DNA from: a virus
DNA length: 64,000 bases
Virus record (IMG/VR): IMGVR_UViG_3300030333_003379
Span: 33,524-97,523 of that record
Reading direction: 5' to 3' (one strand)
Numbering within the stretch: the first letter of the stretch is position 1; each line of letters begins with the position of its first letter. A program made the position numbers and the translations under genes. This document shows positions 25,223-64,000 of the stretch, one piece after another. The notes below the pieces were generated by a model. The model searched no databases, was not told the origin of the DNA, and saw only the letters and a program-made list of their open reading frames with translations.

Positions 25223-25235
25223 GGTATTTAACCCG
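25223..25235 (-). promoter_or_regulatory. Putative BRE/TATA promoter CGGGTTAAATACC for protease-MCP
   Basis: TTAAATA about 25-30 nt upstream of the protease start; overlaps the TAA of the upstream gene. Confidence 0.5.
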
Positions 25236-45588: not shown

Positions 45589-46497
45589 CTATTGTTGTAT
45601 CTGTCCTTGTTCCATTTGCGCTTGCATTTGCGCCTGTGCTTGGGGGTTTATTCCCATTTGACTCTGCTGTGATAGTAATTCCATCTGCATAGCCCTTAAA
45701 TCGAAAGTCACCGTAACCAAATCCGCTATACCCGTCATCGGGTTTGGATGCTGCGTCATAGTAACTCCTTTTGAGTATTGTGCGTCTTGTTGCACCATTC
45801 GGAAGAATGGCTCATACTTCATCAATGATTCAGGAGTGGATCTGTTCTTAGCGGTGTTTTTACCTGTAATACCGGGAACTCGTAAAAATCGTGTTCCTTT
45901 TGCAACCTTCTTTCCAAACCCTTCTTCTGCCATTTCCTGTTCTTCAAGCATACAGCGTAAAGTATGGTAGATGTGTAAGTGAGCAGGGCATAAGGTGCTA
46001 TTCATCTCATCACCATGATCCCCATGTGTGCGAGCATGAGGCTTCTGTGCCTGTCCTGTATCCTCATTGAACCAATAGATATCTGCCAATGATAGTCCTG
46101 TTCGGTCATCAACGATATGAGAATAAGCATTGTCGCCTTCTAAGAATCTGCGAACATCTACACCGCAACAGGCACACTCGTGTGCTGCATTGTAGCGATA
46201 TACCTTGAATAACCCAAGGTTGTAATTCGGTGGTCGCAATGCCTTGCGAAGCATTTTGATATTCTTTCTCCGAGCCTTAGCGGGATTCTTGTGGTTGGTC
46301 TTGAGATTTATCTCAACCGTTGGTATCATTTGCTCATCTCCCATATCACCAGATGAACCTGCGCTTGCCATTTCTGCTCTCTGTTGCGCTTTCAACAACT
46401 CGTATGCTATACCTGTTTGTTGCGATAAAACACGCAACTGCTCGTCAGGAACACCATTGAGCGAGATCCCGCCACCACCAAAGAAGGGTATGCCCAT
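45589..46497 (-). CDS. Putative zinc-binding protein (302 aa; MGIPFFGGGG...)
   Basis: HECACCG and TLCPAHLH; Q-rich C-terminus. Confidence 0.6.
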   Translation of the reverse strand: MGIPFFGGGGISLNGVPDEQLRVLSQQTGIAYELLKAQQRAEMASAGSSGDMGDEQMIPTVEINLKTNHKNPAKARRKNIKMLRKALRPPNYNLGLFKVYRYNAAHECACCGVDVRRFLEGDNAYSHIVDDRTGLSLADIYWFNEDTGQAQKPHARTHGDHGDEMNSTLCPAHLHIYHTLRCMLEEQEMAEEGFGKKVAKGTRFLRVPGITGKNTAKNRSTPESLMKYEPFFRMVQQDAQYSKGVTMTQHPNPMTGIADLVTVTFDLRAMQMELLSQQSQMGINPQAQAQMQAQMEQGQIQQ

Positions 46498-48178: not shown

Positions 48179-48200
48179 CAGGGCGGTATCGGGTTTGTAT

Positions 48201-48719
48201 ATGAGCGCACCCAATCTCGCAGAAGCCGTAACTGCTATGAGATCGTATCAAGATGTTTTGAGAGCGAATCCCTCTAACCCGAATATGATGGCTGCGTGGA
48301 TACAACGCAATACAGACGAGGCTCTTGCAGGTGATTTCTCACATAATGCTGGTATTGCAATTCTTCATTATTATGGACACCCGCTATACGGCAATATCAG
48401 CAATGTGCCACAAGATGCACAACAATGGATATCTCTTATCCAACCCGCAGAGGGCATCATAGCAGATGAGGAAACATGGATTGATATGCAAATTGCAGGG
48501 CAAACAGGTAGTGTAGCCACTCGATTATTCATTTCAGACCATTCGTGGCTTACTCAATGGGCTAACGCAAACAATTTCCCACCTAACACTCCAATGTCCT
48601 ATATTGTGAATTACTTGATTAGCAGATTAAGATCCTGTGAAGGTAACAATGGCCCAACAGGTGCAAACGGTATTTCGCATGAGGAATATGAACTACCAAA
48701 TCAAGAGGAAATCCCCTGA
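48201..48719 (+). CDS. Hypothetical protein (172 aa)
   Basis: Clean ORF after a TATA-like element; no recognisable motif. Confidence 0.65.
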   Translation: MSAPNLAEAVTAMRSYQDVLRANPSNPNMMAAWIQRNTDEALAGDFSHNAGIAILHYYGHPLYGNISNVPQDAQQWISLIQPAEGIIADEETWIDMQIAGQTGSVATRLFISDHSWLTQWANANNFPPNTPMSYIVNYLISRLRSCEGNNGPTGANGISHEEYELPNQEEIP

Positions 48720-48765: not shown

Positions 48766-49608
48766 ATGAAACCCATTGAGATATATGAAGTTGGCCCAAG
48801 GGATGGCTTACAAGCACTTTCTCATACTGTTTCTATTGAAGATAAGGTTGATTTAATCGAATCTCTGGTCAATGGTGGGTTGATTGATATTGAAGTGGGT
48901 TCTTTTGTTCACCCCAAATTAGTTCCAAGTATGGCGGATTCGGATGAAGTATTCAAGGCAGTATGGCACTTAGATGCCTGTCTTGGAGTCCTTGTGCCAA
49001 ATCACAGGGGAATTGAGAGAGCCAAAAAGGTCGGTGCAAAATACTACAACATATTCTTCTCCCCTACTCATTCATTCAATGTAGCCAATCACGGTAAATC
49101 ATACCAAGAAGTGGTTGATCACTATTATCAAGCACTAGAAGGAATACCAAAAGAGAATATCCGAGTATATCTTTCAATGGCATTCAGATCTAACAAAAAG
49201 GAAATGAGTAGAGCAATGAAAGATGCTTGCGCCCTTGGCACTACTGTGGTATTATGCGACACAGATGGAACGGCAACCAATGAACAAGTGTATCACACTA
49301 TACGCAGAGCAAAGCAACATACCGACAATATAGCCCTTCATCTTCACAAAAGCACCAAGTTATTCCAACATATTGCTACTGCATACGAAATGGGGGTCAC
49401 TCAATTCGATAGTAGCATAGGAGGCATGGGTGGTTGCCCCTTCGTCAAGGGGTCAGAAGCAAACCTTGCAACAGAAGCATTAGTCAAGTGGTGCAACCAA
49501 ATGCACATCCCTTGTGGTGTATCTCTGGAGGATTTAGAACCTGCTTTAGAAATTGTAAAGCGAATCAAAGTCCCTCATCAACCCGTCTTGGTTGAATCCC
49601 CAAATTAA
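48766..49608 (+). CDS. hmgL: Hydroxymethylglutaryl-CoA lyase (DRE-TIM family, 280 aa)
   Basis: IYEVGPRDGLQ, IEVGSFVHPKLVPSMADS, LCDTDG, ALHLH, FDSSIGGMGGCPF...ANLATE. Confidence 0.9.
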   Translation: MKPIEIYEVGPRDGLQALSHTVSIEDKVDLIESLVNGGLIDIEVGSFVHPKLVPSMADSDEVFKAVWHLDACLGVLVPNHRGIERAKKVGAKYYNIFFSPTHSFNVANHGKSYQEVVDHYYQALEGIPKENIRVYLSMAFRSNKKEMSRAMKDACALGTTVVLCDTDGTATNEQVYHTIRRAKQHTDNIALHLHKSTKLFQHIATAYEMGVTQFDSSIGGMGGCPFVKGSEANLATEALVKWCNQMHIPCGVSLEDLEPALEIVKRIKVPHQPVLVESPN

Positions 49609-51970
49609 AAGGCAATATAGGGGTCATTGTTTCATCATCATATCCTAAAGTGCCTCCACCAAATAACTGAACGGGTCTATTTTTCTTACCATGTGCATGA
49701 GGGTTGAATGATATCGGGACACCACCCCAACAAGCACCACAACCCCTATCTTGGCAACTACCACCTAATTGAGAAGTGGGGCAAATGTGAATACCTTCAC
49801 CAGAAGCACCTACAAACGAAGGTGCTATCTGTGGGTGAGATGTTAATTCACGGAATCTATCTGTTAGGGCTGGCAAACCTGCTGCTTCATTTGCATCATC
49901 ATCTAACCCTTGACCGACATATGGTGCGCTCAATGATACTTTGAGGCTTTCAGGTATTGCGGTATCCCAATCTCTTACTTTCATATATTCATGGAGGGCG
50001 TTTTCCTCACGAGTTGGCAGCCAAACATCAGATTTGATGGGGCTTCTTGCCATAATGTGTTTGACGGCATCGGCAATTAACGATAAGTGTCTGGCTCTAT
50101 CCTTTACTTTTCTTCCTTGTAAATCACCTGAATCTAACATTCTAAATCTTGGATCTCCAAAGTCCAAAACAGATGCAGGTATTCGGTTTGCTAATGCAGA
50201 AGCATATTCAATTGTTCCTTCTTCATCAGGCATTCGTAACGCAGCAGCATTACGCCAATGTGCAATTTGCTTGTTGTTCAAACGATATTTACCTTGATCG
50301 TGAGCATAGCAATTCTCACAGGTCGAACCAGCACATCTCCGTAAAGTGCTACCAACCCTACATAATTGAGTTGGGAATCCTTGAGAACCACCCGGCATTT
50401 TAGATGTTGAACCAAACGGACTACCAAGTATTCTGTGACCTTCTGAACGGAGATTTTTTCCACCTGTAATGTCCTTGAAATCAGGTAATAACTCATCTAA
50501 CCCCTCAAGAGGGTAACTTACATTGTGTTCTCGGTCAAATCGTGCAATGGGTTCAGGGTTTGCCTCATTCCAAAGGTAAATCTGGTCTTTGTTGTCTTTG
50601 TATGGTGTTCCACCAAACCTCTTATCCCAATGCAATAAATCATCAGGGTCGCCTAATGCTTTGTTGAGAGTATCGGCCAATTCCGTTAAGTCATTGACGA
50701 TAGATCTGCGGATAATGCCTTGTGGGTCTATCTCATCGGGGAAGAATGCAGCCTTTCCTAACCACAAAGATGGGTCAAAGGACTCATCGAATCTTTCCTC
50801 CCATTTTTGCTGTTCGCCTTCTGTGCCTACAAATTGCTTATCTGGATGGTGTTGAAACCACCTTGCAGCATCCATATCGGGTATGTTAGCAATAGCAATT
50901 AGTTCTGGTTTAATACCACGACTTGCTGCTCTTGTTCCAGCAGTATCCATCCTACGATTCAACAATGTTTTGAATCCTCTATCACGATACATTTCAGCAA
51001 CATTAGGACTGTTGAATGCTACAATAGGCAAACCATCTTCTGCTAATTCACCTAATTGATTTGCCAATGCTTCTTGACCTGCATCCCCCATATTGATACC
51101 ATAAGATGCTGCCTCACCCGCATATGGTGGATCAACGGCAGCAAGGTCTTTTCTCGGATTCAAATCTAGATTCTCAAAGAACTCATCAACAGGGCCGGGC
51201 TTCATTGTCCAATCCTCCATCAAAGGCTGATAATGCTGATAGTTCCACACATCAGCATAAGGGCCAAAAGCCCCTCTTGTTTGTGTATAACGACCTGTTT
51301 CTGGATTATATCGAGTAAAGGCATTGGTTGATGTTTGTTGAGTCATTAACCATAATTGGGCTAATCTTTGCCAACCATCTAAATCTAATTCTCCACTATT
51401 CGCCATATCAATCATGTAATTGAGGCTACCTTCTTGTGGGTCTTTTGTGCTACCACGCAGAGTCGGGCCGGTGTAAGTGCTAAAGTCAGCACCACCGTGA
51501 GTAAAATCATCTCCAAAGAATGTGGGTTTAGATACTTCTCCCGGTGTTGCAACTTGCTCTCGCTCTTTACCACCCTTTACTGCACTTGCATCAATACCGT
51601 GGCCTGTGAACTCATGCCAAGGCAATTCTAGTCCACCGGGTGTATCACGCATTTCCTCATACGCATTCATCAAATGAGTATCAGCATCACCAACTACAAC
51701 TTCTTTTGCTGGCATATTGAGAGCGATATTCGCCCCACCAAGCGCAGGGTCAAGAAGTCGCTGTGCGCCAACTGATTGCATTGCATCTCTTAATGGCCCA
51801 AGGTAATGTGACTTCGCTTTACTACCTGCCCACTTTAATGGTGAAGGGATACGAGTTTTACCTGTAATATCCCCCCCTACTTTACGAGCAATCGCTGGCG
51901 TTATGCCTAAACCACGAACCCCCATGGCTTTTGCGATCTCTATCTCATCTTTAACAGGATCATTGCTCAT
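49565..51970 (-). CDS. Fusion: Dam-like N6-adenine DNA methyltransferase + GP88-like Cys-rich domain (~801 aa)
   Basis: SPLKWAGSK, DPALGGANI, DADTHLMNAY, DPPY; then STSKMPG..FP..LC..GS...CENCYA...FRMLDSGDLQ...WLPTRE...C..CGACW. Confidence 0.8.
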   Translation of the reverse strand: MSNDPVKDEIEIAKAMGVRGLGITPAIARKVGGDITGKTRIPSPLKWAGSKAKSHYLGPLRDAMQSVGAQRLLDPALGGANIALNMPAKEVVVGDADTHLMNAYEEMRDTPGGLELPWHEFTGHGIDASAVKGGKEREQVATPGEVSKPTFFGDDFTHGGADFSTYTGPTLRGSTKDPQEGSLNYMIDMANSGELDLDGWQRLAQLWLMTQQTSTNAFTRYNPETGRYTQTRGAFGPYADVWNYQHYQPLMEDWTMKPGPVDEFFENLDLNPRKDLAAVDPPYAGEAASYGINMGDAGQEALANQLGELAEDGLPIVAFNSPNVAEMYRDRGFKTLLNRRMDTAGTRAASRGIKPELIAIANIPDMDAARWFQHHPDKQFVGTEGEQQKWEERFDESFDPSLWLGKAAFFPDEIDPQGIIRRSIVNDLTELADTLNKALGDPDDLLHWDKRFGGTPYKDNKDQIYLWNEANPEPIARFDREHNVSYPLEGLDELLPDFKDITGGKNLRSEGHRILGSPFGSTSKMPGGSQGFPTQLCRVGSTLRRCAGSTCENCYAHDQGKYRLNNKQIAHWRNAAALRMPDEEGTIEYASALANRIPASVLDFGDPRFRMLDSGDLQGRKVKDRARHLSLIADAVKHIMARSPIKSDVWLPTREENALHEYMKVRDWDTAIPESLKVSLSAPYVGQGLDDDANEAAGLPALTDRFRELTSHPQIAPSFVGASGEGIHICPTSQLGGSCQDRGCGACWGGVPISFNPHAHGKKNRPVQLFGGGTLGYDDETMTPILPFNLGIQPRRVDEGL

Positions 51971-52496
51971 CGGGATTATCCCCCATTTCATCAAGAAGTT
52001 TCTGGTTGGCTTCTTGGACTATACGCATTTGCTCTGCAAACGCTTCGTTATACATGGGATTATCATATACTGTGATACCCGGACTACCTGCTGACTTATC
52101 TTCATTAGATGGTGTTCCACTTGGCAACATATGGGGCAAAATGTCCTCTGGTGGTATATTTTCATTGGATACCCAAGAAGCATCTGCACTCACTTCATCG
52201 GGATTCATACCCAATATAGCAAGCATCATTGGACTATGATCCATTCCCGGTTTCATTCTTGGGTCGCCTTCATCACGCCAGAATGGAACAGTAGCGATTT
52301 TAGGAGAACCCATTCTACCAAAGGAAACCCACCTTCGGGCTATTTCGGGGTCTTTTGAAGCATATACTTCACCAAAATTACTCTTGATGCCTTCGTGGAG
52401 AATGCCACCTTTACCGTGAAGATTTTCTTCGGGAGTAGCATGGTAATACCACGGTGCTTTCACAACCGCCCAACCTGCATCAAATGCTCTACTCAT
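51960..52496 (-). CDS. Tagged ADP-ribosyltransferase-fold protein (MSRAFDAGWAVVK; 178 aa)
   Basis: YYHATPEENL...ILHEGIK...VYASKD...IPPEDIL (KptA/DarT/DUF952-like pattern). Confidence 0.7.
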   Translation of the reverse strand: MSRAFDAGWAVVKAPWYYHATPEENLHGKGGILHEGIKSNFGEVYASKDPEIARRWVSFGRMGSPKIATVPFWRDEGDPRMKPGMDHSPMMLAILGMNPDEVSADASWVSNENIPPEDILPHMLPSGTPSNEDKSAGSPGITVYDNPMYNEAFAEQMRIVQEANQKLLDEMGDNPDEQ

Positions 52497-55400
52497 CCTT
52501 CTCCCCCTTCGGTTTCCTGTAAAACGCATCTGTTAAGAATTGTGGGTCAATTTCCTTTTCATCATCATTTTTTAACCTACGATTCGCTATTTCGCTTAAA
52601 ATATCATTGAGGGTTTTCCTTTTCCGACCCATATTTGCATCATCTGTTGGTTTTTTCAAATGTTTCATGTATTCATCCAAATCCCATTTTGCTCTGTTAT
52701 GCCCACTTCTGGATACATTTTTGTATTCCGAACTAAATGGTTTATCACCAAACCAACCGCCTTCATATGCCATTTCCTCATCTTCTAATGGAACACCTAT
52801 GTCGTGCTGGCTTTCATCTTCATCAACAACTCGATGCGTATCTAAATCCATAAATGCCTGTGCTATGGCACGAGTTACAGGATCATATTCGTGCTTTTCT
52901 CGTGGAATAGGCTTTGATGGTCTTTCTCTTTTGCCCTTTGAACCTCTCCTTTTCATCCATATACCTTTAGGCATATCTTCATCTGCGTAGTAAGATTCGT
53001 GATCACCACCGATTAGATATTTGTATTGTGCTTCTGGTATTGAAATACCTTCTTTTTCTGCTATATCTCTAATGAAAGCCCAATCACTAATTTCAGGGTT
53101 AGTTACACCTGCTCTTGGCCCGACTCTATGTGTTTCACCATATTTGCTTTTACTCCTAAATGCCTTATCTGGATCATCCAATACATTCCATATTGACGGG
53201 TCTTTCATCCCTCTAGCAACCCTTCGCATTATTGGCTTACCTGCCAATGGGTGAGGCACTAATTCCTCTTTTGGATAAAGCCCTTCTTCTGGCTTCCTCC
53301 AATCAGAAATCCGATCAAGTGTGCTTTGTATTTCGCCATGGGGGTCATCGAAAGATTGTTCCTCCATATCATCATCTCCCCAACTTTCATGGCGTTTCCA
53401 TTTGCGGGTAACGCCCGGATATCGGTAATCTCTAGGGTTGTTAGGAACTCTTTCTAATGCTTGTGTTGGTATTAAACCATAATACAAAGAAGGGAATATA
53501 TTCTCTGCAAACCTTTCGCCTCGTGGTCGGGGTTCATTGTAGTAACTTTGTGCTTCTTTTTGCCAATACTCTAATGCTGCTTGATGTTCTGGATTATCAG
53601 GCTCAAACTCTGTGAAACTGTAATCACTCAACATTTTATCAGGATACACTTTAGGGCGACTGATAGAATCAGCATCAGTAATTCCTAACTTTTCTGCCAA
53701 ATCACTAATCTGTTGCTTCATAGCAGCCTTTTCTGCTGCTACACCTTCTGCCCATGCCCGTTCATTTGGGCCGGCTTCTGTGTAATCATCGTTGCCCCAC
53801 CATATTCTATGGTCATCCCAATCTTTCTCTGCTGCTGCGGTGAATACATCATTGTATCTAGATCTCTCCCAATCACCAGCCCATCTGCTTTTCTCATCCC
53901 ATGTATCTTTCAATTTGTTATACAAATTGAATAACTGCTCATACTCATCTTTTTGATCACCGAACATTGAAAAATTAGGTCTTTTGCTTCTAGGTATTTC
54001 CAAATTAGTATGGAAAGGCCACCTAGATTGTTGTTCGGGCATCCAATCATATGTTAATTCTGTATCTGGATCCACCCAATCAGGATTTATGCTTGTTCCA
54101 TAACTACTTGTTGGCATTTTTATTTGGTCAGCCACCATTGACGCTAGTATTCTTCTCAATTCAAGACGACCAATCTCGCCTTTGATGTTTTCAGGTAAAT
54201 CCGCAATAGTGCGTGGTAATGGTGCATTACCTGCAACTACTTCATCAAAATGAGCATCTAATGCTCTTAACGCATCACCAGATAATTCCAACGCAGCCTT
54301 TCTGCGCCCTGCGGGTCTATCTGGGCGGTTGAGATAACCTTCTGGGTCTGTTTCATACATTGCTGAATCTGATAATATCCCTGCCCCTTGATTGATAATT
54401 GCATTCCTCAAATTACGATAAATACGCTCTTGAGGGGGCAACAGTAACTTTTCTGCTTCTGGCTCTGGAGTTGGTGTCCAACCCTCATCCATACCAATAG
54501 GTGGCCTTCTTTCTGGTGGAATACCCATAATGCGCCTTAATTCATGTGTGTTCATACCCCATTTATTACTTGGTTTAAGCGCACTTGCCATCCTTTTTGC
54601 GTTAATCGGATCTTCAATACCCCACTTCTTCTGTGCAGCCTCTACCATTTCCAAATGCTTACGCCTTTGTTCCTGTTCTACATCTCGATGGTGTAACCAT
54701 TTACCCATGGCATAACCGGGATTTTGAGGATATTCCGCAGTATATGCCGCCTTTTCATGCCAAGCCGAAGGGCTTTGACCCCACTTTTTGGTTTGGCCTT
54801 GTGTTGGATTAAGAATAGCGGGTTCTCGTAAAATGTGCTTCATGGCCGCAGGGTTATCCATGAGAAAAGCCATTTTATCGCTAATTTTATCAGAACGAGT
54901 AGTTGGATTATCGAAATCCCTATCGAATCTCGTATTAGAAGCGTATCTTGGATCTAATTTGATACGATTCAAAGCACCCTGTGTTGCTCTATGACCCATC
55001 TCATGCACAATAGTATCAATAATATCAGGCTCAACATCATCTAGCCATTCACTATACCTTCTATTGTAATCTTCCATTGCTTCTTCATAACTTTCCCGAC
55101 CCATAGAAGCCTCTTGCACTATATCCCCATCTTCATCTAACACCTCTAACTCATTTCTCCATTTACCTGCTATTCCGTAATCTTCATCATATGCGCTAGG
55201 GTCTGCCCATGGCCTTTCATTCTCACCACCTTTCCATTGGAAAAAACTCTTATCTGGTTTTTCAGGCGCACGACCTGTTCTCCACCCTGAACCTTCTGCA
55301 AAAGGTGAAAGATACACGGCTTGTGCTAATTCTCTCGGTGTAAGATAGCGAGTTACTTCTTGACCGTCAATAACATCAGTCCTTGTTTCGCCTTCAAAGT

Positions 55401-55560
55401 TATCAGGATCAAAGTCATCAGGTAATGTTTGAACCATGTTTATTGTGTCTGGATGAAATGACGACCAACCGAGATAATCCCCCTTATCCCGTCTGCCTGT
55501 GGGTTTGAGAATGAAATCGGCTTTCATTATTTTCGCCAAGGCTTGTGGTGTAAGACCCAT
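52489..55560 (-). CDS. Large protein (1023 aa) with a zincin-like HEXXH metalloprotease domain
   Basis: DTIVHEMGH at 54991-55005, downstream AWHEKAAY; N-terminal IMK|A and ILK|P motifs. Confidence 0.6.
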   Translation of the reverse strand: MGLTPQALAKIMKADFILKPTGRRDKGDYLGWSSFHPDTINMVQTLPDDFDPDNFEGETRTDVIDGQEVTRYLTPRELAQAVYLSPFAEGSGWRTGRAPEKPDKSFFQWKGGENERPWADPSAYDEDYGIAGKWRNELEVLDEDGDIVQEASMGRESYEEAMEDYNRRYSEWLDDVEPDIIDTIVHEMGHRATQGALNRIKLDPRYASNTRFDRDFDNPTTRSDKISDKMAFLMDNPAAMKHILREPAILNPTQGQTKKWGQSPSAWHEKAAYTAEYPQNPGYAMGKWLHHRDVEQEQRRKHLEMVEAAQKKWGIEDPINAKRMASALKPSNKWGMNTHELRRIMGIPPERRPPIGMDEGWTPTPEPEAEKLLLPPQERIYRNLRNAIINQGAGILSDSAMYETDPEGYLNRPDRPAGRRKAALELSGDALRALDAHFDEVVAGNAPLPRTIADLPENIKGEIGRLELRRILASMVADQIKMPTSSYGTSINPDWVDPDTELTYDWMPEQQSRWPFHTNLEIPRSKRPNFSMFGDQKDEYEQLFNLYNKLKDTWDEKSRWAGDWERSRYNDVFTAAAEKDWDDHRIWWGNDDYTEAGPNERAWAEGVAAEKAAMKQQISDLAEKLGITDADSISRPKVYPDKMLSDYSFTEFEPDNPEHQAALEYWQKEAQSYYNEPRPRGERFAENIFPSLYYGLIPTQALERVPNNPRDYRYPGVTRKWKRHESWGDDDMEEQSFDDPHGEIQSTLDRISDWRKPEEGLYPKEELVPHPLAGKPIMRRVARGMKDPSIWNVLDDPDKAFRSKSKYGETHRVGPRAGVTNPEISDWAFIRDIAEKEGISIPEAQYKYLIGGDHESYYADEDMPKGIWMKRRGSKGKRERPSKPIPREKHEYDPVTRAIAQAFMDLDTHRVVDEDESQHDIGVPLEDEEMAYEGGWFGDKPFSSEYKNVSRSGHNRAKWDLDEYMKHLKKPTDDANMGRKRKTLNDILSEIANRRLKNDDEKEIDPQFLTDAFYRKPKGEKDE

Positions 55561-57107
55561 TAAGCAACCCTCCTTGGTTGAACATTGCGGAATATGTTTT
55601 CCATGATATTTGGATTTAGGGTATTACCTAGTTGAGTATCAATGATATTCTGTCGCTTCTTCTTAGGTGGATTGACTTGGAATCCTTGATTATCCCTTTG
55701 AGGGAAATTGAATGCTTTTGCTTCTTCTGGTGTCCAGCCCTGTATTTGCATGACTTCGGGGCGAGTTAATTTACGAACATGGGTTAAAGCAGGTCTGTGA
55801 TGGGTTACAGATTCAGATGGGCCACTAAGTGGATTGATATGTTTCCATGCAAAACCTCGCTTTTCATCATTCCACGGTGATCCGCCTCTCCCCGGATTGA
55901 TTGAACCTCCCATACTCAATGTTGGAACGGATAGTAAATCCATTGCATTAGGGGCATTGCCTTGTTGAAGTAAGTAATCAATTTGCGCTTGGCGATCACC
56001 TTCTTCCCACTCTTGTTGCATATACGGGAAGTGGTCGTTTATGCTACGATAATTTCCTCTACCCATGATTTGTGGTGTAGCCTTAGAGCCGTGAACCGCA
56101 TACATTCGTTGTCTTACGGTTGGAGAACCAAACATACCCGATTCAAGAAGTGGACTTTCTCTCGCCATGGTTTTGAACTCTTGTGAGATGTTTTTATCAC
56201 GGAGTAAAGGTTTGAGGATTTCAGGTGATTGTTCCACCGACATAACCACAGGGGCATTCTCCCATCCCATTACTTCACTCATAATATCGTCAGCAAAGCG
56301 CATACCTTCCATTGCACCACTCACATCAACATCTTTCGATTGATTAGAGCGAGCGATTTTCTTGCATGATGGTGATTGATGTAATGCCCAACTATCCAAT
56401 CCTGTGGTGGCATCGTGAATATGACCTAATGTATCGTCAAGTGTTTCTGGACTAAACCATTGTTGTATATGCTTACCCGGTAGATTCTCATTGAGTGTGC
56501 GAATTGACTCATCCCAACCATCCATAGCCAACACAGGATTCGCCCCAACTCGCATAGCAGCCGTTTCGGGCGCACCCATACCAGAAAATAGAGTTACCAA
56601 TCCTTCAAAGGGGGCATCATCGGGCTTATCTTCATACATTGAATACTTCAAAATAGCATCCCAACCCGCTTCAAATGCGTCACTAGAGGCTAAATGCCCC
56701 ATTGACCTTGACGAACAGGCATCCCATGTATCCAATACCATTTGGGCTACTTTCTTCTCTTGATCACTACCTTGTCGTAACCATAATTCCATTTTCTCTT
56801 GTAATTCAGCACAAGACCACCCCTCATCACCATTGGCTACCGCTTCTGCTAAATCAAACAACATTTGAGTGAAGAAGGGGTCTGAAAGGGGATTTGAGCC
56901 TTCTTGCTTGGCATACTCAAACATCCATGACGATAATTCCTCTCGTGCCTCTGCACAACAGGGATCTTCAATTTCATCAGTAAGGGTATCCAAATCTTCT
57001 ATGGTTCGCTCTGGCTCATACATCACAAAAGGTTGAGATGGCTCTGGATTTACATTGATTCTTGGTGAGCCGTCAGGTCGTTTAAGACCAAAGTTATCAC
57101 TCACCAT
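55560..57107 (-). CDS. C5 cytosine DNA methyltransferase-like protein with N-terminal extension and an internal tag (515 aa)
   Basis: LFSGMG (I), SPSCK (IV variant), RQRMY (VIII), RKLTRPEVMQIQGW (IX), QLGN (X); AFEAGWDAILK at 56646-56678. Confidence 0.75.
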   Translation of the reverse strand: MVSDNFGLKRPDGSPRINVNPEPSQPFVMYEPERTIEDLDTLTDEIEDPCCAEAREELSSWMFEYAKQEGSNPLSDPFFTQMLFDLAEAVANGDEGWSCAELQEKMELWLRQGSDQEKKVAQMVLDTWDACSSRSMGHLASSDAFEAGWDAILKYSMYEDKPDDAPFEGLVTLFSGMGAPETAAMRVGANPVLAMDGWDESIRTLNENLPGKHIQQWFSPETLDDTLGHIHDATTGLDSWALHQSPSCKKIARSNQSKDVDVSGAMEGMRFADDIMSEVMGWENAPVVMSVEQSPEILKPLLRDKNISQEFKTMARESPLLESGMFGSPTVRQRMYAVHGSKATPQIMGRGNYRSINDHFPYMQQEWEEGDRQAQIDYLLQQGNAPNAMDLLSVPTLSMGGSINPGRGGSPWNDEKRGFAWKHINPLSGPSESVTHHRPALTHVRKLTRPEVMQIQGWTPEEAKAFNFPQRDNQGFQVNPPKKKRQNIIDTQLGNTLNPNIMENIFRNVQPRRVA

Positions 57108-57237: not shown

Positions 57238-58782
57238 ATGCAGGGGCAACCAATCTTCATCATGCAGCAAGGCACGACACAAGAACAAGGCAAAACGGCA
57301 CAGTCGAATAATATCGCTGCCGCTAAAGCAGTAGCACAAGCAGTTCGGACTACACTAGGGCCAATGGGCATGGATAAGATGCTAGTGGATGAAAGTGGAG
57401 ATGTAATCATCACAAATGATGGTGCAACCATTCTTCAAGAGATTAACATTGAACACCCAACGGCTAAGATGATTATTGAAATCGCTAAAACACAGGAACA
57501 GGAATGCTATGATGGCACAACATCTGCTGTGATTGTCGCAGGTGAACTACTCAAGCGTTGTGAGGAACTTATTGATCAGAATGTTCATCCCACAGTCATT
57601 TGCCGTGGATTGCGAAAGGGAATGTCTTTCCTTCTATCAGATTTGAAAAATTATGAAATCAATGATATTGATTTGGATAAGATTGCCAAAACCGCCCTTA
57701 CAGGCAAGTCGGCTGACTCATTCAAGGACATTATCTCTGCGATTTGTGTTGAAGCGGTGGAAAACACCGACAGCCTTGAAGATATCCGTATTACCAAGGC
57801 ACTTGGTGGTTCAGCAGGGGATAGTGAGATAATCAACGGTATTATTCTCGATAAAGAGCGTTGCCACCCCGCAATGCCTTCTCATCTTCAACCATCCACC
57901 GATGGTTGGGCTATTGCCCTAATTGATAGTAATCTTGGAGTAAAGCAGACCGAAATGGAGGCAAACATCCAGATTACAGATCCCGCACAGATTGAAGCGT
58001 TCTTAGCAAAAGAAGAAGCCGAATTGCAAAAGATGGCAGAAGATTTCCATGACCATGGTGTGCAAGTGGTTCTGTGCCAGCGTGAAATTGATGATTTAGT
58101 CAAGTATCACTTTGCTAAATTGGGCATCATTGCCGTTGAGAAGGTAACAAAGAGCGATATGGAAGCCGTAGCAATGGCTTCTGGTGCCACAATTATCAAC
58201 AACATCAATGATATGAGTAACGATGCCAAAGGATTCTTTGAAGAAGTTAAACAGGAAATGATTGGTGAAATGCCTATGCTATTCCTTTACCATGGTCAAA
58301 CACCTGCCATGACTGTATTACTTCGTGGCCCTACTACACACTTCGTTGAGGAAATTGAAAGAGCCTTTGATGATGCAGCAGGTGTGGTCAAGGTCGCCAA
58401 AGATGACGGAGTTATCCTTGCAGGTGGAGGATCTACTTACGCAGGTCTATCCAATTCACTAGCAAATCATGCTAATCACCATGGTGGCAGAGAAGGAATG
58501 TCTATGCTGGCACTATCAGTAGCACTTGAGTCCATTCCACGCACTCTAGCAGAGAATGCAGGTCTAGACCCGGTTGATGAGATGATGATGCTTAACCAGA
58601 CACATTCAGCAGGTAACAAGTATATGGGTATCAACATCGAAGTCGGTGGCACTATTGATATGAGAGATCTAGGTGTCTATGAGCCAAAGCGTGTGGTTGA
58701 GCAAGCACTCAAGTCAGCAGTTGAAACTGCAATCATGGTGCTTCGTATTGACGACATAATTTCATCACGAAAGACCGACTAA
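57238..58782 (+). CDS. ths: Group II chaperonin (thermosome subunit, 514 aa)
   Basis: [26 protein letters not shown], helical protrusion region, [17 protein letters not shown]. Confidence 0.95.
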
Positions 58783-58901
58783 GGTTGGAATATCTTAGTG
58801 TAAAGCCAAGCGAATGGCAACAGTATAAGAAGAATTGGTATTGCAACCATTGCAGCCAATCCCATTAGGACTAATTGCCAAAGGGGTTTATCCTCACTCA
58901 T
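58779..58901 (-). CDS. 40-aa single-TM peptide (not in the ORF track)
   Basis: [40 protein letters not shown]; ATGA overlap with the upstream gene; stop overlaps the thermosome stop. Confidence 0.6.
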   Translation of the reverse strand: MSEDKPLWQLVLMGLAAMVAIPILLILLPFAWLYTKIFQP

Positions 58902-60685
58902 CTAAGACCACCCGTATCGGGTGGTGTTTCATCATCATCTTCGTCATAATTGATACCTGTCCATGGTAGTTCGCCTAATGAAGATACATAATCCAGAAGT
59001 TCTTTACCAGACATTGATTCCATATCTGGGCGTTCTCCTGTTTTCCATTCGACCAAATCTTCTGTATCTTCCCACGGTCTTAATTGCATATACTGATTAT
59101 TGCGAATGGCAGAATCACCAGAAGTGTAATCATCCATGAATCTTCTCTTGCCCCCACAACCCGGACATTCACCTGCCCTGCGGTGCATATCATATTTTTG
59201 TGCGCCACTATGGATAATTTCTTGTCGTGAAGGATCCCAATTCACTTCACTATACCCTGCTCTACCCGTAGCGGGGCTATAATCCACAATGTTGCGCTTT
59301 CCTGTTCCAACAAATGACGGATTCCACATACTTACAGTATCATAATATCTGGGATTGTTTTCTGGGTCGTCAATATGCTCTTGCGCTCTTGGGCTATGTG
59401 ATTCATGATCTCTCTTTTCTCTCGGTGTGTATAATGCCCTACAACTCGGACAGAAGGTGGCTCGTTGGGTATCTCTCATTGCCCCTATACCTGCTTTAAT
59501 GGCACTTCGCTGTTGTTCATCACGATCAAAGAAGAGTGGGCTATGCCTATCTGCTTCATCACCCATAACCATCCTAAATGCTGATGGGCCACCTTCCATT
59601 GGACTATACTGATGGTGGCGATATCCACCAAACGGCAATATACCATATCCTTCATCATCCCATATCTGCCCTGCATCATCTAGCACATCATCCCAGAATG
59701 AACGCCCACCCCTTTCTGCGATACCGTGTTTTTGTTGATATTCCAAATAGGGACATTCATTGGGATTGTGATGCCCATATGTGCTAGTAGCACCTTCTGG
59801 TAATGGGGCGCAATAAGGGCAGATTTGGGTTCTTTGGTTGTAATCACCCATCCAATCTTGTCGGTCTGGGTCTTTTCTCCCAAACCCTGCTTCATTTTTC
59901 TCATACTGCTTTGGGTCAGGACTTGGGGCTAGATCATTACTAAACCATCTCCCATTTTCTTCCCATGAATCATCTGCAATCAATTTACCATATCTTTCCA
60001 ACATTTCTTCTGTGGTTAAACGGGGATAAAATCGCTCAAAGGGTCGGATTTCATCACCAAACTCATCCATTTTTCCACTTCTCCTGTGGCGACCCGTATC
60101 GGGGTCATATACTCTTGATAGCATACCCGGATAGGGGTCAGGTCTTTGGTGAAGATTACCATGTTCATCAGTCCACTCGTATGGATAATTCTCTAATGGA
60201 TAGGGAACATCCTCACCATGCCTAAGATATGGTGGTGATACCCAATCCTTACCTGCGGGGGTTTGAAGTGGCTCATGCAACATACCACCAGCATTTGGGC
60301 AGAATGGTCTCGTTCTGCCCAATCTTACACTATATTGTTCATCAGGGGGATTGTCGGGAAACAATTCCATTTCTGTATCAGGGTCATAAACATCTTTCAT
60401 TGCTATTGCCCTATCCAATTGCTCTCTTGATAGATGATTAGCCGGGGTGTAGTTCTCAAGATCTCCATCCAGAATCTTATCCCTTACGATGTTATCATAT
60501 CCTCTGCTTGCAAATCTATCAAGAATATCCCTTATGATGGGGTTTCCAATGCGACTACCTCTCTCATAGTTAAACCGGGGAACAGATTGGGTTTCCCACC
60601 CATGCACATTTTCTGGAAATAATTCAAACACAGATGAGTCATAATCCTTCTGGATTATATTCCATGCTTGATTAAACGCACTCAT
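58898..60685 (-). CDS. Tagged hypothetical protein with several CxxC motifs (595 aa; MSAFNQAWNIIQK)
   Basis: N-terminal tag; CPYC, CPSC and CPGC. Confidence 0.65.
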   Translation of the reverse strand: MSAFNQAWNIIQKDYDSSVFELFPENVHGWETQSVPRFNYERGSRIGNPIIRDILDRFASRGYDNIVRDKILDGDLENYTPANHLSREQLDRAIAMKDVYDPDTEMELFPDNPPDEQYSVRLGRTRPFCPNAGGMLHEPLQTPAGKDWVSPPYLRHGEDVPYPLENYPYEWTDEHGNLHQRPDPYPGMLSRVYDPDTGRHRRSGKMDEFGDEIRPFERFYPRLTTEEMLERYGKLIADDSWEENGRWFSNDLAPSPDPKQYEKNEAGFGRKDPDRQDWMGDYNQRTQICPYCAPLPEGATSTYGHHNPNECPYLEYQQKHGIAERGGRSFWDDVLDDAGQIWDDEGYGILPFGGYRHHQYSPMEGGPSAFRMVMGDEADRHSPLFFDRDEQQRSAIKAGIGAMRDTQRATFCPSCRALYTPREKRDHESHSPRAQEHIDDPENNPRYYDTVSMWNPSFVGTGKRNIVDYSPATGRAGYSEVNWDPSRQEIIHSGAQKYDMHRRAGECPGCGGKRRFMDDYTSGDSAIRNNQYMQLRPWEDTEDLVEWKTGERPDMESMSGKELLDYVSSLGELPWTGINYDEDDDETPPDTGGLR

Positions 60686-60945
60686 TTCTTATCCCTCAAG
60701 TTTCGTGCTAATTGGCAGCCAAGCCGTATCTTTGAAGTGGATTGCTCATTCCAGAAGGAGTCATGCTCAAGACCAAATCGCTTCTCGATATGATTACATA
60801 ACTCCCTTCTAGTCATCTTGCGAAAGTCCTCATCAATATCAATACCGAGTATCACAGGTGTTTCTGGGTGTTTCAGCATAGAATCCAGAATTACATATGC
60901 CCAACCCATGAGGGTTATCAAACCACGAATAAGCCATTGAAACAT
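60682..60945 (-). CDS. Small protein with an N-terminal hydrophobic helix (87 aa), untagged
   Basis: MFQWLIRGLITLMGWAYVIL; in operon. Confidence 0.6.
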   Translation of the reverse strand: MFQWLIRGLITLMGWAYVILDSMLKHPETPVILGIDIDEDFRKMTRRELCNHIEKRFGLEHDSFWNEQSTSKIRLGCQLARNLRDKK

Positions 60946-60948
60946 TTC

Positions 60949-61500
60949 TCATCCGCCCCTGTAAAGCCCCCGTTGAAACATTATATCAAGTAAATGCCTA
61001 TTATCTTGTTTATCTTCTGGTAATGCAGCCCTATTACGAGATCCAGCAAAGTCAATGACTTCCAAATACTTGGGGTCTATTCTATCACGAGTTCGTTGGT
61101 GATCATGCGCCCATTCCCAATTTCTGACCCATCTACCTTCATTATCGGGTTTAATGGCTATCATAACGGGGTCATCAATCATATCAGCATACATTTCCAT
61201 ATCATCAAACACATCCCCATCAGCATCTATTGCCCAAGTCCAATTTCCTTCATACAAATCATCAGTATCACGATAACCTGCATTTCGTGCTATTTCATCC
61301 AATTCTTCAATGGTGAAATCGTGCATACTATGGTCTATGATAGGTTGGGATGCGGGATGGACACCCTTGCCACTACCCATTAAGGCTGGATTTAGCCCTT
61401 CACGCATAATACCGGGAACATTATCTCGGTGTGTAAAGTGGTATGCGAAGGGATAGGGTCTGCCCTTGACCACAAGCCATGCAGTATCAAAGGCGGTCAA
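60949..61500 (-). CDS. Tagged ADP-ribosyltransferase-fold protein (TTG start; [M]TAFDTAWLVVK; 183 aa)
   Basis: AYHFTHRDNVPGIMREGLNP...RIDPKYLEVI; TTGA overlap with the upstream stop. Confidence 0.7.
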   Translation of the reverse strand: MTAFDTAWLVVKGRPYPFAYHFTHRDNVPGIMREGLNPALMGSGKGVHPASQPIIDHSMHDFTIEELDEIARNAGYRDTDDLYEGNWTWAIDADGDVFDDMEMYADMIDDPVMIAIKPDNEGRWVRNWEWAHDHQRTRDRIDPKYLEVIDFAGSRNRAALPEDKQDNRHLLDIMFQRGLYRGG

Positions 61501-62096
61501 TCTTCCACCACCGTTGAAATCAATTTGCGAGGGGCGTGTATTGGGTCTAAATCGGCTTCTTTGAAGGCTTCGTTGTTCACCTTCTCCCAACCACCATAAG
61601 TCAAAGGTTCGTCAATCGGTATGTCGGGCGCATATACAACTTCAAGGTATTCTGGAGGGATGGTTTCGTTTGAATGCAACCCATAGGTATTTCGCCTCAT
61701 TGGGAATTGGTCGGACACACGGATTATCGCAGGGCGGTTGATTTCATCGGTGATAAACGGCTCTCGCATAAAATGAATATCGGCAATCCCATGCCCCGTT
61801 TTTTCTTTGGATTCTTGCCTTAACTTCCTTTTCAATTGCTGATTCCCTGCCCTTCGTGCATAATCATGGGCGGTTTCGGCAAATTGGGTCATATACACTC
61901 TCGGTAAATCACCATAATAGTCGGTATCAGGATCACGGATGAAGCGATTGCTCATTTCTTGCGCCCATTCATCGTCTTTGCGTCTATGAGTATGCGTTGG
62001 CTTCAAACCATGTTCCATAATGTCGGCAACACGGTCTTGCGTAGTGCCGTGATAAGGCATTTTGAGCAAGTCCCAAGCGGTATCGAAGGCGGTCAA
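61497..62096 (-). CDS. Tagged ADP-ribosyltransferase-fold protein (TTG start; [M]TAFDTAWDLLK; 199 aa)
   Basis: PYHGTT...IMEHGLKP...RVYMT...PAIIRV...TIPPEYLEVV; TTGA overlap. Confidence 0.75.
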   Translation of the reverse strand: MTAFDTAWDLLKMPYHGTTQDRVADIMEHGLKPTHTHRRKDDEWAQEMSNRFIRDPDTDYYGDLPRVYMTQFAETAHDYARRAGNQQLKRKLRQESKEKTGHGIADIHFMREPFITDEINRPAIIRVSDQFPMRRNTYGLHSNETIPPEYLEVVYAPDIPIDEPLTYGGWEKVNNEAFKEADLDPIHAPRKLISTVVED

Positions 62097-62920
62097 TATC
62101 CTTCCCTCCATACGGGTTTTCCATCAATAGTAAGATAATTTGGATTGGCGGAATGTGGCTCAATCGCTTCAAGGAAGTTCTGCATACCCGGTCTTTCGTG
62201 GTCTATATGGCTCATAAACTCCAACAATCTGCTTGCTGGTATTTCTATTCCCCACCTATCCAAATCCGTTTGTAATTTTTCACCGGGATCGTCTGCCGTT
62301 GCCGGCCAATAATCCGTAGGCTCGCTCAAACCCATATCAATATCAAACATTCTCCAATTGCCCGTTTGATCTACTCCCCAATTGCTATTTTGCCTATCAG
62401 CGACTATATGATTCAAAGGAATATCAGCAACGCCCTTTGTAGGGCGGTTGCTATTTTGCTCACGATACGAAGCCGCACCAACATCATCTCTCGCAAGCCA
62501 AGGTTGAAGGAAATATCTATCATCCACATTATATTCCGAAACAACAGGGAAACCCAAATCTTCTAACTCTTGAATTAGATTTTTACCATGATATTCATCA
62601 CCAAAGCGATTATCAACATCAAAAATATCTTGCCACGGATCACCTTTATCTTCACCTGTTATGCTAGAATACACAGAACGGGGGAGTTTCACCACAAAAT
62701 TATGATTATCTGGATGGGGGAGAACATATTTCATCGTTTGACCCGATGGGTAATCCTCATAACCCACATAATCTGGTTCTGTTTGCCCTGTATCTTCAAG
62801 CCATTGTTGGGATATTCGGGTTAAATCATTATCACTAAGCCTTGGTAAAGCCCTTGCCTGATACCTCCAACCCGGATTATACTCCTTGAGTAAAGCGAAA
62901 GCGGTATCGAATGCGGTCAT
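62093..62920 (-). CDS. Tagged kinase-like protein, HipA/PI3K-like catalytic motifs (275 aa; MTAFDTAFALLK)
   Basis: FVVKLP (Lys), ADRQNSNWG (DxxxxN loop, 62381-62398), MFDIDMG (Mg-binding). Confidence 0.65.
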   Translation of the reverse strand: MTAFDTAFALLKEYNPGWRYQARALPRLSDNDLTRISQQWLEDTGQTEPDYVGYEDYPSGQTMKYVLPHPDNHNFVVKLPRSVYSSITGEDKGDPWQDIFDVDNRFGDEYHGKNLIQELEDLGFPVVSEYNVDDRYFLQPWLARDDVGAASYREQNSNRPTKGVADIPLNHIVADRQNSNWGVDQTGNWRMFDIDMGLSEPTDYWPATADDPGEKLQTDLDRWGIEIPASRLLEFMSHIDHERPGMQNFLEAIEPHSANPNYLTIDGKPVWREGY

Positions 62921-63390
62921 TCGTCATCACCCCTTTGCCAGAGTGAATATCCATCTCTACCCTCATTTGGGTCAGCATTTCTTGCTAACAACCATTCTTC
63001 TATATCGTTTTGAATCCAAGCCTGATAATCATCTTCATCTTCTCCGGGTGAGATTTCCCTCCCTTGATACACAATTTCCATCATTTCGGGGGGTATTCTT
63101 TCACCATAAACCACCGACTCTGCCCCTTCTTCATCCATTATTGTGGGCATTTCATCAGAGATGTGAATAATTGCTGGCCCACCCCTATCGCTTCTTACTT
63201 GAGCGAACTCACCTGCATAGGTAGGCCCCCTTGAGGCAAAAGATACACGATCAGGATAATCGGGGTTATTCCTAAACCACGGATGGGTGTGAGGGCGTAA
63301 CCCCCCTCTCATAATCTGTTTTGCATTCCAAGCACCTGTGCCGTGAAAAGGCATTTTCAGCAACTCCCATGCGGTGTCGAAAGCATTCAT
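62917..63390 (-). CDS. Tagged ADP-ribosyltransferase-fold protein (157 aa; MNAFDTAWELLK)
   Basis: PFHGTG...IMRGGLRP...VSFAS...PAIIHI...RIPPEMMEIV. Confidence 0.75.
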   Translation of the reverse strand: MNAFDTAWELLKMPFHGTGAWNAKQIMRGGLRPHTHPWFRNNPDYPDRVSFASRGPTYAGEFAQVRSDRGGPAIIHISDEMPTIMDEEGAESVVYGERIPPEMMEIVYQGREISPGEDEDDYQAWIQNDIEEWLLARNADPNEGRDGYSLWQRGDDE

Positions 63391-63665
63391 TCGCCATCAC
63401 CCCACATTTCTAACCATTCCCACGGATCTATGTGTTGCCACATTTCTCGGTGGCGTTTTCCAAGTAGTTCAGCCAAACCATCAGGCCAATGCGAATCTTT
63501 ACCTGTCTGCATTCCTCCCGTTGGGTCATCATCAAAATGATAAGCATAAGGAGAGGCGATTAACCAACTCAAGTAGCCATCGGCATCATCCCTGTTCTCA
63601 ATGGGGTAGCGAGCAGGGGCTAATGGGTCTTTCACCACTAACCATGCGGTGTCGAAAGCGGTCAT
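63387..63665 (-). CDS. Tagged small hypothetical protein (92 aa; MTAFDTAWLVVK)
   Basis: Start revised to the ATG at 63665 (ATGA overlap). Confidence 0.7.
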   Translation of the reverse strand: MTAFDTAWLVVKDPLAPARYPIENRDDADGYLSWLIASPYAYHFDDDPTGGMQTGKDSHWPDGLAELLGKRHREMWQHIDPWEWLEMWGDGE

Positions 63666-64000
63666 TGATTCCAACCCCTTTCTGCAAGCCTTGCGTTCAA
63701 TGTTGCACCGTCTGGTAACTGTTCCCATTGATAATCAGGATTTCTATTCGCCAAATTACCCAACGATTGACCCATTAAATCTGGCTCTATCATCATAAGA
63801 CCTGTTTTCTCATCGAGAACAGGCTTTTGACTCATGTTAGCATGACGGGGTATATCGGGGTGGTCGCCCTTAATCCACCATGTATCTCCCATACCGAACT
63901 TATCCTCTGTATCAATACCGCCAAAGCCATACCAACCACCTTTACGCTTGTATGCCGGCTTTCCATCTACCATACTTCTAGAACTGCCTGTTGATTGATA
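63662..64000 (-). CDS. 3' part of a gene starting beyond the right window edge
   Basis: Frame open from 64000 to the TGA at 63662. Confidence 0.65.
   Translation of the reverse strand, partial: YQSTGSSRSMVDGKPAYKRKGGWYGFGGIDTEDKFGMGDTWWIKGDHPDIPRHANMSQKPVLDEKTGLMMIEPDLMGQSLGNLANRNPDYQWEQLPDGATLNARLAERGWNQ

Follow-up and report, generated by a model that had tools for sequence, protein, structure and literature searches.

What is common to consecutive genes whose products otherwise look unrelated, and what is the common part for? The question is raised by the end of a 64,000-nucleotide stretch of viral DNA from IMG/VR record IMGVR_UViG_3300030333_003379 (the whole stretch is called the window below), which corresponds to bases 33524-97523 of a single 99,897-bp contig. 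A row of minus-strand genes begins here with nearly the same DNA, encoding a 12-residue peptide (the tag), and continues in each gene with a different payload. We find that the tag is the boundary at which cassettes, each consisting of a tag and its payload, are replaced, relocated or lost, both within virus populations and from one to another.

The tagged genes of the window start at 63665 (gene B), 63390 (C), 62920 (D), 62096 (E) and 61500 (F), all on the minus strand, and have their first 24-36 nt in common. Each start has the DNA (A/T)TGACCGCNTTYGAYACYGCWTGG or a copy two mismatches off, and the consensus peptide at the gene starts of the array is M-T-A-F-D-T-A-W-x-[LV]-[LV]-K. Genes B, C and D begin at ATG with the N-termini MTAFDTAWLVVK, MNAFDTAWELLK and MTAFDTAFALLK, respectively; genes E and F begin at TTG with (L)TAFDTAWDLLK and (L)TAFDTAWLVVK. 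With up to 3 mismatches allowed, TGACCGCNTTYGAYACYGCWTGG is found five times in the window, each time at the start of one of the genes B-F, while a shuffled window contains 0.01 matches on average and none of 100 shuffles reaches five. These counts confirm the five-gene repeat of near-identical starts described in the original prediction, and the row is larger than was claimed. Three further tagged genes start past the window end (window-equivalent positions 64126, 64920 and 65672; 97649, 98443 and 99195 of the genome), which gives eight consecutive tagged genes with a 4-nt overlap at all seven junctions, followed by the untagged gene G and the tagged gene H. The proposed stop/start overlaps are also present as described, namely ATGA at A/B, B/C and C/D and TTGA at D/E and E/F. 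The genes of the row that lie in the window are:

63662-64000, minus strand: 3' part of gene A (154 aa, tag MTAFDRAWLVVK), the start of which is outside the window at window-equivalent 64126.
63387-63665, minus strand: gene B, 92 aa, ATG start, no known payload family; tag at 63630-63665.
62917-63390, minus strand: gene C, 157 aa, ATG start, tag and predicted ADP-ribosyltransferase-fold domain, payload family 0.
62093-62920, minus strand: gene D, 275 aa, ATG start, tag variant MTAFDTAFALLK, payload family 3, possibly protein-kinase-like (a lead only).
61497-62096, minus strand: gene E, 199 aa from TTG, tag and predicted Tpt1/KptA-like ADP-ribosyltransferase domain.
60949-61500, minus strand: gene F, 183 aa from TTG, tag and predicted ADP-ribosyltransferase-fold domain with a DarT-like 'YHFTH' start.
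60682-60945, minus strand: gene G, 87 aa, untagged, hydrophobic N-terminus, same operon.
58898-60685, minus strand: gene H, 595 aa, tag variant MSAFNQAWNIIQK, Cys-rich, no known family; last of the 10-gene coupled row.

A G-rich stretch (GGGGTGAT, GGAGGG or GGTGGTGG) is located 8-14 nt 5' of each start, within the last codons of the preceding gene, and we infer that it serves as the ribosome-binding site. An overlap of exactly 4 nt is found in 55 of 92 consecutive tagged pairs. The TTG starts proposed for E and F are likely, TTG occupying the start position in 12/127 tags and GTG in 7/127 tags of the relatives' set; they are unproven, and gene E has an additional in-frame ATG five codons upstream (62111). 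The tagged operon is preceded by about 700 bp without a credible open reading frame and with long T/A runs, which form the right end of the contig (contig positions 99196-99897). This non-coding stretch could contain promoters, an origin or the genome terminus.

The Pfam families of the window include a large terminase, a portal, an S78 prohead protease, an HK97-type capsid protein, a group II chaperonin (thermosome) and two DNA methylases. Magroviruses are viruses of marine group II archaea, and their group A carries a thermosome, as described in PMC5434244. Since the head genes and the thermosome match those of magroviruses (same source), the genome is, judged by its gene content, that of a magrovirus-like tailed archaeal virus of about 100 kb from the sea.

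The tag is limited to one virus clade. A degenerate DNA pattern of the tag (ATGACNGCNTTYGAYACNGCNTGG) is found at 48 loci distributed over 25 IMG/VR contigs, frequently as several tandem copies, the number expected by chance being below one by our estimate. The same pattern gave five scattered single matches, all of them bacterial, in 596 Gb of bacterial and archaeal genomes, which is approximately the estimated chance number. At the protein level the tag was found in 23 of the 25 contigs (142 matches, up to 12 per contig), and two contigs had none by the expression used. The capsid protein is 75-88% identical to that of this virus in four of the five tag-bearing contigs checked; the fifth one (61% complete) had no match. 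The closest relative by capsid protein (contig G001, 93% identical) is collinear with this genome up to the thermosome, where the contig ends; its first 14 kb contain no tags, and the array end lies outside this contig.

Altogether 127 open reading frames start with the tag, 118 in IMG/VR and 9 in this genome, a number inflated by two near-identical contig pairs (114 without them). Single-linkage blastp clustering divides the tagged payloads into 54 families, 32 of which are singletons. Among 112 distinct N-termini Phe4 is invariant, Ala3, Ala7, Trp8 and Lys12 are at least 90% conserved, and no conservation is seen after residue 12. The tag is a peptide under protein-level selection that may occupy an N-terminal, internal or C-terminal position. 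The whole genome has 11 N-terminal copies, and internal copies are found in four proteins of the window, the one in a C5 methylase with W-x-x-I-L-K spacing. The following copies are located outside the array:

51960-52496, minus strand: tagged gene beginning with MSRAFDAGWAVVK-APWYYHAT..., an ADP-ribosyltransferase-like start.
35336-35785, minus strand: tagged 149-aa Cys-rich protein, GTG start, VSAFNRAWKILK, directly upstream of the large terminase gene.
36169-36198, minus strand: internal copy AFNSAWSVLK in a 634-aa low-complexity protein.
42432-42461, minus strand: internal copy AFEDAWSMLK in a 613-aa low-complexity protein.
56646-56678, minus strand: tag-like AFEAGWDAILK between an N-terminal extension of about 140 aa and the C5 DNA methylase domain (gene 55560-57107).

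The C5 methylase with the tag-like AFEAGWDAILK may be a tagged or a processed methylase, and its arrangement is reminiscent of packaged anti-restriction enzymes such as the Dar proteins of phage P1. Both low-complexity proteins belong to a group of four large ones (613, 617, 509 and 634 aa; 35782-42896, minus strand) upstream of the terminase gene. They are rich in P, A, G and Q and carry G-D-G-Q-P-D-A-P-like repeats; the local GC content reaches 0.50 and the AT skew is -0.29. These proteins, two of the four with internal tag copies, may be internal virion or ejection proteins. C-terminal copies are found in the relatives 3300034374_007647 (loci L005, L016 and L044, ~28.7-29.5 kb) and 3300021960_000065 (L047, ~64.8-65.6 kb). 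The first gene of their arrays encodes a Zn-ribbon protein of ~250 aa with the N-terminal variant MPTAFRIAW... and a C-terminal copy DAFTSAWDVVK placed 2-4 residues from the end. It is possible that this two-tag protein is an adaptor. For gene H, 11 pattern matches in IMG/VR contained no confirmed relative, and H was not found in contigs G001 and G002.

Comparison of the tag-bearing viruses shows how the cassettes are exchanged. The order of payload families differs in nearly every related virus. The contigs 3300021960_000065 and 3300034374_007647 have flanks that are 90-91% identical, and their arrays share only tag matches of 41-57 nt. Three blocks of homology shared by 3300010149_000020 and 3300025769_000106 break off inside tagged genes, 34-37 nt from the start. 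The third pair, 3300006925_000008 and 3300021197_001557, has different arrays and flanks of 80-89% identity, with one cassette of 249 aa being 96.5% identical over 770 nt; here the two contigs are unrelated up to the ATG of this cassette, near-identical through the gene, and lose their identity 24 nt into the next tag. Counting the ends of blastn alignments of at least 200 bp over all non-duplicate contig pairs gives 229/411 ends within -20 to +45 nt of a tagged start, as compared to 25/411 for random positions. As all tags resemble each other, the breakpoints are located to the junction-plus-tag interval and not to a single base. Close relatives thus vary in cassette content and order with breakpoints at the tag, in agreement with the original prediction. 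Its proposal that recombination between tags swaps, adds or deletes payloads stands as far as tag-bounded exchange and cassette deletion are concerned, but whole genes are swapped rather than C-terminal tips.

The same boundaries are seen in metagenome contigs of four public runs (X2, X3, X4 and X8) aligned to positions 58800-64000, the C and D regions being covered by X2 only, which does not mean that these genes are missing from the other runs. In X3, X4 and X8 the match of the pieces over 61397-61499 ends at the first base of the F start codon, beyond which their sequence is unlike the window. Further loose ends are situated at the start of G (60939/60945; X3, X4 and X8), at the start of B (63665/63666; X2 and X8), 24 nt into the tag of B (63642; X4) and 24 nt into the tag of F (61477; X8). 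In run X2, 11 of 12 aligned pieces have an identity of at least 99%. One contig of this run departs from the window at 63665, and its next 30 letters are those of genome positions 97650-97679, the end of the gene before A. This contig joins the gene before A to B and therefore represents an exact 461-nt tag-to-tag deletion of cassette A, a junction at a tag of the kind predicted for metagenomic sequence. The intact A/B junction is present in the same run (contig spanning 63352-63903), and the tags of A and B have no more than 14 identical nt in a row. The deletion contig is unlikely to be an assembly chimera, provided that Logan contigs are built from 31-letter words, as we assume. Two other joints were recorded. 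The one in X8 (61502>63642, short side 25 letters) probably reflects ambiguous alignment of one tag to another, or else a tandem tag, and the one in X2 (64000>63629, short side 37 letters) probably arises from the A tag aligning to the B tag; with short sides of about tag length, both may also be real contigs with tandem or chimeric tags.

Within the array itself, the likeness of the tag DNA is about what the peptide and the codon usage predict. The mean pairwise identity of 7 array tags is 0.706, and tags simulated with the same peptides and the genome codon usage give 0.678 +/- 0.014 (P=0.03). An identical 18-nt stretch between two copies had been pointed out earlier; it is indeed the longest identical run, and its probability in the codon-usage simulation is P=0.16. 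Synonymous sites differ among the copies. The array tags are, as was stated, more alike than the tags elsewhere, but mainly since the latter encode variant peptides (MSAFNQAWNIIQ, VSAFNRAWKILK). Neither the recent duplication nor the recent exchange that had been deduced from the likeness within the array follows from it.

Over the whole clade, the DNA consensus of the tag goes beyond the peptide. Thr is encoded by ACC at both positions, the first Ala by GCC, Asp by GAC and the second Ala by GCT, and the third position of codon 2 is C in 98/127 tags; ACA, GCA and GAT are preferred by the genome, by its capsid gene and in identical codon-pair contexts. In 122/127 tags the fourth base is A, which provides the TGA stop of the upstream gene. 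Both window tags with Ser at residue 2 (those of H and of the 149-aa gene) use the codon AGT. Synonymous codon identity between tags is 0.587 within a genome vs 0.515 between genomes (permutation P<0.001, same-family pairs excluded).

The payloads are poorly covered by known families. A Pfam search of the array proteins A-H gave no family, and nothing matched A, B, G, H or the two tagged genes outside the window. When 64 further tagged proteins were compared with Pfam, GNAT alone exceeded the curated cut-off (PF00583, E=1.1e-5, in a relative). Proteins C, E and F belong to family 0, the largest payload family. The alignment of its 23 sequences displays the motif [YF]-H-G-T...I...G-L directly after the tag, with His16 at least 90% conserved and Thr18 and Gly30 invariant. 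Profile comparison aligns the [YF]-H-G-[ST] motif to Y-H-G-T of Tpt1, and its first-strand His is presumably that of the H-Y-E clade of ADP-ribosyltransferases. The family profile matches PDB sequences of Tpt1 (E=6e-4) and DarT (E=0.0097). Single members show sub-threshold Pfam matches to PTS_2-RNA, PARP and DarT; PTS_2-RNA reached the gathering score in none of the 23 members and was sub-threshold in four, with the best E=0.022.

The AlphaFold model of E (pLDDT 77, pTM 0.75) was compared with known structures. The top Foldseek matches are all Tpt1/KptA (E 8e-3, probability 1.0), none of the Foldseek matches reaching E<=0.001. Superposition on the ADP-ribosyltransferase lobe of Tpt1 with VIA-align gives Z 9.9 and a root-mean-square deviation of 2.9 over 89 residues with 27% identity, and Z is 5-7 for ADP-ribosyltransferase toxins and DarT (about 7 for the Rhs toxins TreX and TreTu, 5-6.6 for the catalytic domains of pertussis, cholera and diphtheria toxins). 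The model matches residues ~88-183 of Tpt1 alone; the N-terminal RNA-binding lobe is absent, and the tag precedes the ADP-ribosyltransferase strand. Because the ranking is consistent and agrees with the VIA-align Z-scores and the profile match, C, E and F are predicted to be ADP-ribosyltransferase-domain proteins lacking the RNA-binding lobe of Tpt1. Families 0, 10, 26, 38 and 41 all have the [YF]-H-G-T start after the tag and align as one ADP-ribosyltransferase-like superfamily.

Protein D is possibly protein-kinase-like. In the six sequences of its family Lys78, Asp175...Asn180 (D-x4-N) and Asp193 are invariant, which we take to be kinase-like motifs. The nearest named clusters in the Atlas, Kinase-PolyVal (0.94) and Phage_T7_kinase (0.93, on 13% of members), are leads only. 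The structure model of D is too poor for a fold search (pLDDT 50), and its profile had only chance-level matches among PDB sequences. The payload types recognised are predicted protein- or nucleic-acid-modifying enzymes, namely three ADP-ribosyltransferase domains and a possible kinase in the array and GNAT in relatives.

What the tag does in the virus can be approached from its ending, a pair of hydrophobic residues and Lys12 followed by Ala, Met or Gly. The same ending is present in the head proteins of this virus, at two candidate sites given here and at residues 20-23 of the prohead protease:

23761-23772, minus strand: L-L-K-A in the major capsid protein (residues 35-38), which ends as the tag does and is a candidate site of maturation cleavage.
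24684-24695, minus strand: L-L-K-M, residues 175-178 of the prohead protease, at the end of the Pfam S78 match (177), where a variable linker/scaffold-like part begins.

These endings are kept in 80/80 relatives of the capsid protein and in 67/68 relatives of the protease, the remaining one not having been extracted. In untagged open reading frames 9 of 22 hydrophobic-hydrophobic-K(A/M/G) motifs fall into the first 40 residues, which make up 11.5% of all residues (P=4e-4). Seven further untagged proteins with this motif in their first 40 residues are candidate substrates of the prohead protease:

14608-15504, 21569-21877, 29351-29698, 29700-30314, 35782-37686, 45589-46497 and 52489-55560, minus strand: the seven untagged proteins.

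We favour the reading that the tag is a capsid-loading label clipped by the head protease because the peptide is portable, ends like head-protein sites and has a parallel in T4; its chance of being right seems to us only a little short of even. In the account that we propose, the locus makes up the first half of an operon of 10 translationally coupled genes, situated at the right-hand end of the genome. Its cassettes each comprise the G-rich, putatively ribosome-binding stretch, the (A/T/G)TGA stop/start overlap and the 36-nt tag with an unrelated payload. The tag would dock the payloads into the assembling capsid, the S78 prohead protease would cut after Lys12, and a changing set of host-modifying enzymes would enter the cell together with the DNA, as do the internal proteins and Alt of T4. 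Staying close to one DNA consensus, the 36-nt tag would supply homology for the recombination of cassettes. Taken as a whole, this account of an exchangeable cassette operon with a capsid-loading tag clipped by the S78 protease and acting as shared recombination homology appears to us evenly balanced between right and wrong. The stricter version, in which one 36-nt coding element has two jobs, an address peptide for the capsid and a crossover site for seamless gene insertion, swap or deletion, is possible, though on the unlikely side. Insertion, swap and deletion would be seamless because each tag carries the stop codon of the preceding gene.

Several points weigh against capsid loading and tag-borne recombination. 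Packaging and cleavage are deduced from sequence and analogy. The relatives in which the L-L-K sites are kept are close ones (capsid identity at least 76%), so that this conservation is weak evidence. The array is situated ~38 kb from the head genes and is the first operon after the ~700-bp non-coding end, a position that would suit early host-takeover genes too, expressed ahead of capsid formation. The C-terminal and internal copies mean that N-terminal clipping is not the whole function of the tag. The C-terminus of the protease/scaffold (...GWRALEELGQRAL...) bears no clear resemblance to the tag in this clade. A complex prediction with the capsid protein, the protease/scaffold and a 34-residue tag alignment returned a score of 0.00 and 'no answer', which speaks neither for nor against binding. 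As for recombination, the variant without cassette A is one short-read contig, and the within-genome synonymous excess is small and may reflect genome-specific codon habits rather than conversion.

The tag may instead dock the payloads to a hub other than the capsid (the viral thermosome or the host RNA polymerase, ribosome or replisome) for early targeting without packaging, the chief rival reading, which we consider unlikely. The array heads its operon beside the long non-coding genome end and adjoins the thermosome gene both here and in genome G005. The tag has the F-x-x-x-W-x-x-L spacing typical of amphipathic helices that dock into a groove, and C-terminal and internal copies would be workable without cleavage; the payloads are, moreover, of the enzyme kinds that act on host machinery in known phages, such as T4 ModA and ModB and T7 gp0.7. 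However, docking to another hub does not account for the likeness of the tag ending to the L-L-K sites conserved in capsid protein and protease, for the tagged protein before the terminase or for internal copies in the low-complexity proteins of the packaging module, and no candidate hub emerged. As to the thermosome as a receptor, the tag-bearing relatives all belong to one chaperonin-carrying clade, so co-occurrence cannot discriminate. It is improbable that the conserved start functions chiefly as a nucleic-acid element, signalling translational re-initiation or coupling or serving as a dedicated recombination site, with the peptide as a by-product. Its codon consensus is explained neither by genome codon usage nor by neighbouring-codon context or expression level, and the A at the fourth base, the AGT Ser codons and the exact 4-nt overlaps described above would suit such an element. 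But third positions vary freely, replacements are conservative (D/E/N, T/S, L/V/I), copies of the motif stand within proteins and at their ends, a long way from any start codon, and the conservation of residues 3, 4, 7, 8 and 12 across the 112 N-termini is that of a peptide.

Duplication is a common origin of tandem arrays, and five of the payload families do form one ADP-ribosyltransferase-like superfamily; the cassettes might then be diverged paralogues of one ancestral gene, with the tag as their best-kept segment and with no address function or special recombination. Behind the tag, however, stand unrelated architectures as well (GNAT, Zn-ribbon and Cys-rich proteins, the 595-aa protein, the possible kinase), the motif is also C-terminal and internal, and the homology blocks between viruses end at the tag and not within payloads. 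Common descent of this kind is to us as improbable as the nucleic-acid element. Least probable, and by our estimate very improbable, is a conflict locus of the polymorphic toxin/immunity type, in which the tag would be the trunk and the payloads toxins against competitors. The likeness to such cassette arrays had been suggested by the original prediction, and it holds loosely, for the payload content, which varies between relatives, and for exchange at a shared sequence; the ADP-ribosyltransferase-fold payloads also resemble toxin domains, by the Z-scores given above. It fails in that there is no large trafficking trunk but 12 shared residues, every cassette is a complete gene with its own start, and the 4-nt overlaps between tagged genes leave no space for immunity genes, no untagged immunity-like gene being interleaved. 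The best structural match, furthermore, is the Tpt1/KptA enzyme and not a toxin.

The proposed capsid loading has its closest known counterpart in phage T4. T4 Alt is a packaged cargo with ADP-ribosyltransferase activity, and the T4 protease gp21 belongs to a family other than S78. In this virus, too, a short terminal peptide is common to unrelated proteins, 54 families standing behind the tag. Diverse internal proteins of T4 share only the capsid-targeting sequence (CTS), according to PMC3012670. As in the CTS of IPI-III and Alt, a short N-terminal peptide is the sole common part of diverse, fast-changing proteins, and its ending matches candidate cleavage sites in the head proteins of the virus itself. 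The present system differs from the T4 CTS in its archaeal host, its unrelated 12-residue peptide, its HK97-type S78 protease, its internal and C-terminal copies and its single overlapping operon. Modular shuffling of non-essential variable genes mediated by PeSLs is described for the hyperplastic regions of T4-type phages in PMC2839356. There, as here, short conserved sequences act as recombination points for insertions, deletions and replacements among close relatives; PeSLs, in contrast, are intergenic and consist of a promoter and a stem-loop terminator, whereas the repeat described here is coding (the first 12 codons) and has no intergenic space.

With the RNA 2'-phosphotransferase Tpt1/KptA (PDB 8tg6, 8tfz, 9ldi), C, E and F share the NAD-binding ADP-ribosyltransferase domain, to judge by the aligned Y-H-G-T...I...G-L motif and the fit of the E model. 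They lack its two-lobe architecture, having the 12-residue tag in place of the N-terminal RNA-binding lobe. Polymorphic toxin systems, including phage MuF-toxin fusions, place a variable payload behind a conserved delivery part. Variable enzymatic payloads and exchange through a conserved sequence are common to them and to the array, which differs in having no trunk domain, immunity genes or orphan C-terminal tips.

The surroundings of the array deserve brief description. The thermosome gene (57238-58782, plus strand) is located between the tagged operon and the methylases. It is one of three credible plus-strand genes of the window, the others being 48195-48719 and 48766-49608; the rest are on the minus strand. 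A protein of 1157 aa (25228-28701, minus strand) is encoded between the portal region and the prohead protease; it has no Pfam match and, judged by its length and location, may be a virion or morphogenesis protein. A small protein with a SAP DNA-binding domain (14178-14567, minus strand; PF02037, E=2e-11) is encoded on the tail side of the structural arm.

A term search of three magrovirus papers, covering them outside their supplements, returned no mention of an N-terminal motif, a tandem array or an ADP-ribosyltransferase. The novel elements are the array with its strict overlaps, the assignment of payloads, the consensus at the DNA level, and exchange and deletion bounded by the tag. Magroviruses infect Poseidoniales, which are among the most abundant archaea of the surface ocean; both virus and host are uncultured, and most of the viral genes have no known role. 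The clade-wide tag groups about a fifth of the accessory genes in one functional class and predicts that this class consists of modifying enzymes which are delivered or targeted to a hub. The turnover of this repertoire is seen in the exchange at tags and in the deletion variant, which comes from a second sample; both provide a marker for following virus-host arms races in metagenomes. The array is a natural system for shuffling a viral toolkit. If the tag does load payloads into the capsid, the cargo principle of T4 would extend to archaeal viruses, and a 12-residue handle would be available for loading foreign proteins into HK97-type capsids. If it does both jobs, it would represent an integron-like gene-cassette system built into coding sequence, through which ADP-ribosyltransferases, kinases and acetyltransferases would be shared in the virus population and rapidly reshuffled against one abundant archaeon of the ocean.

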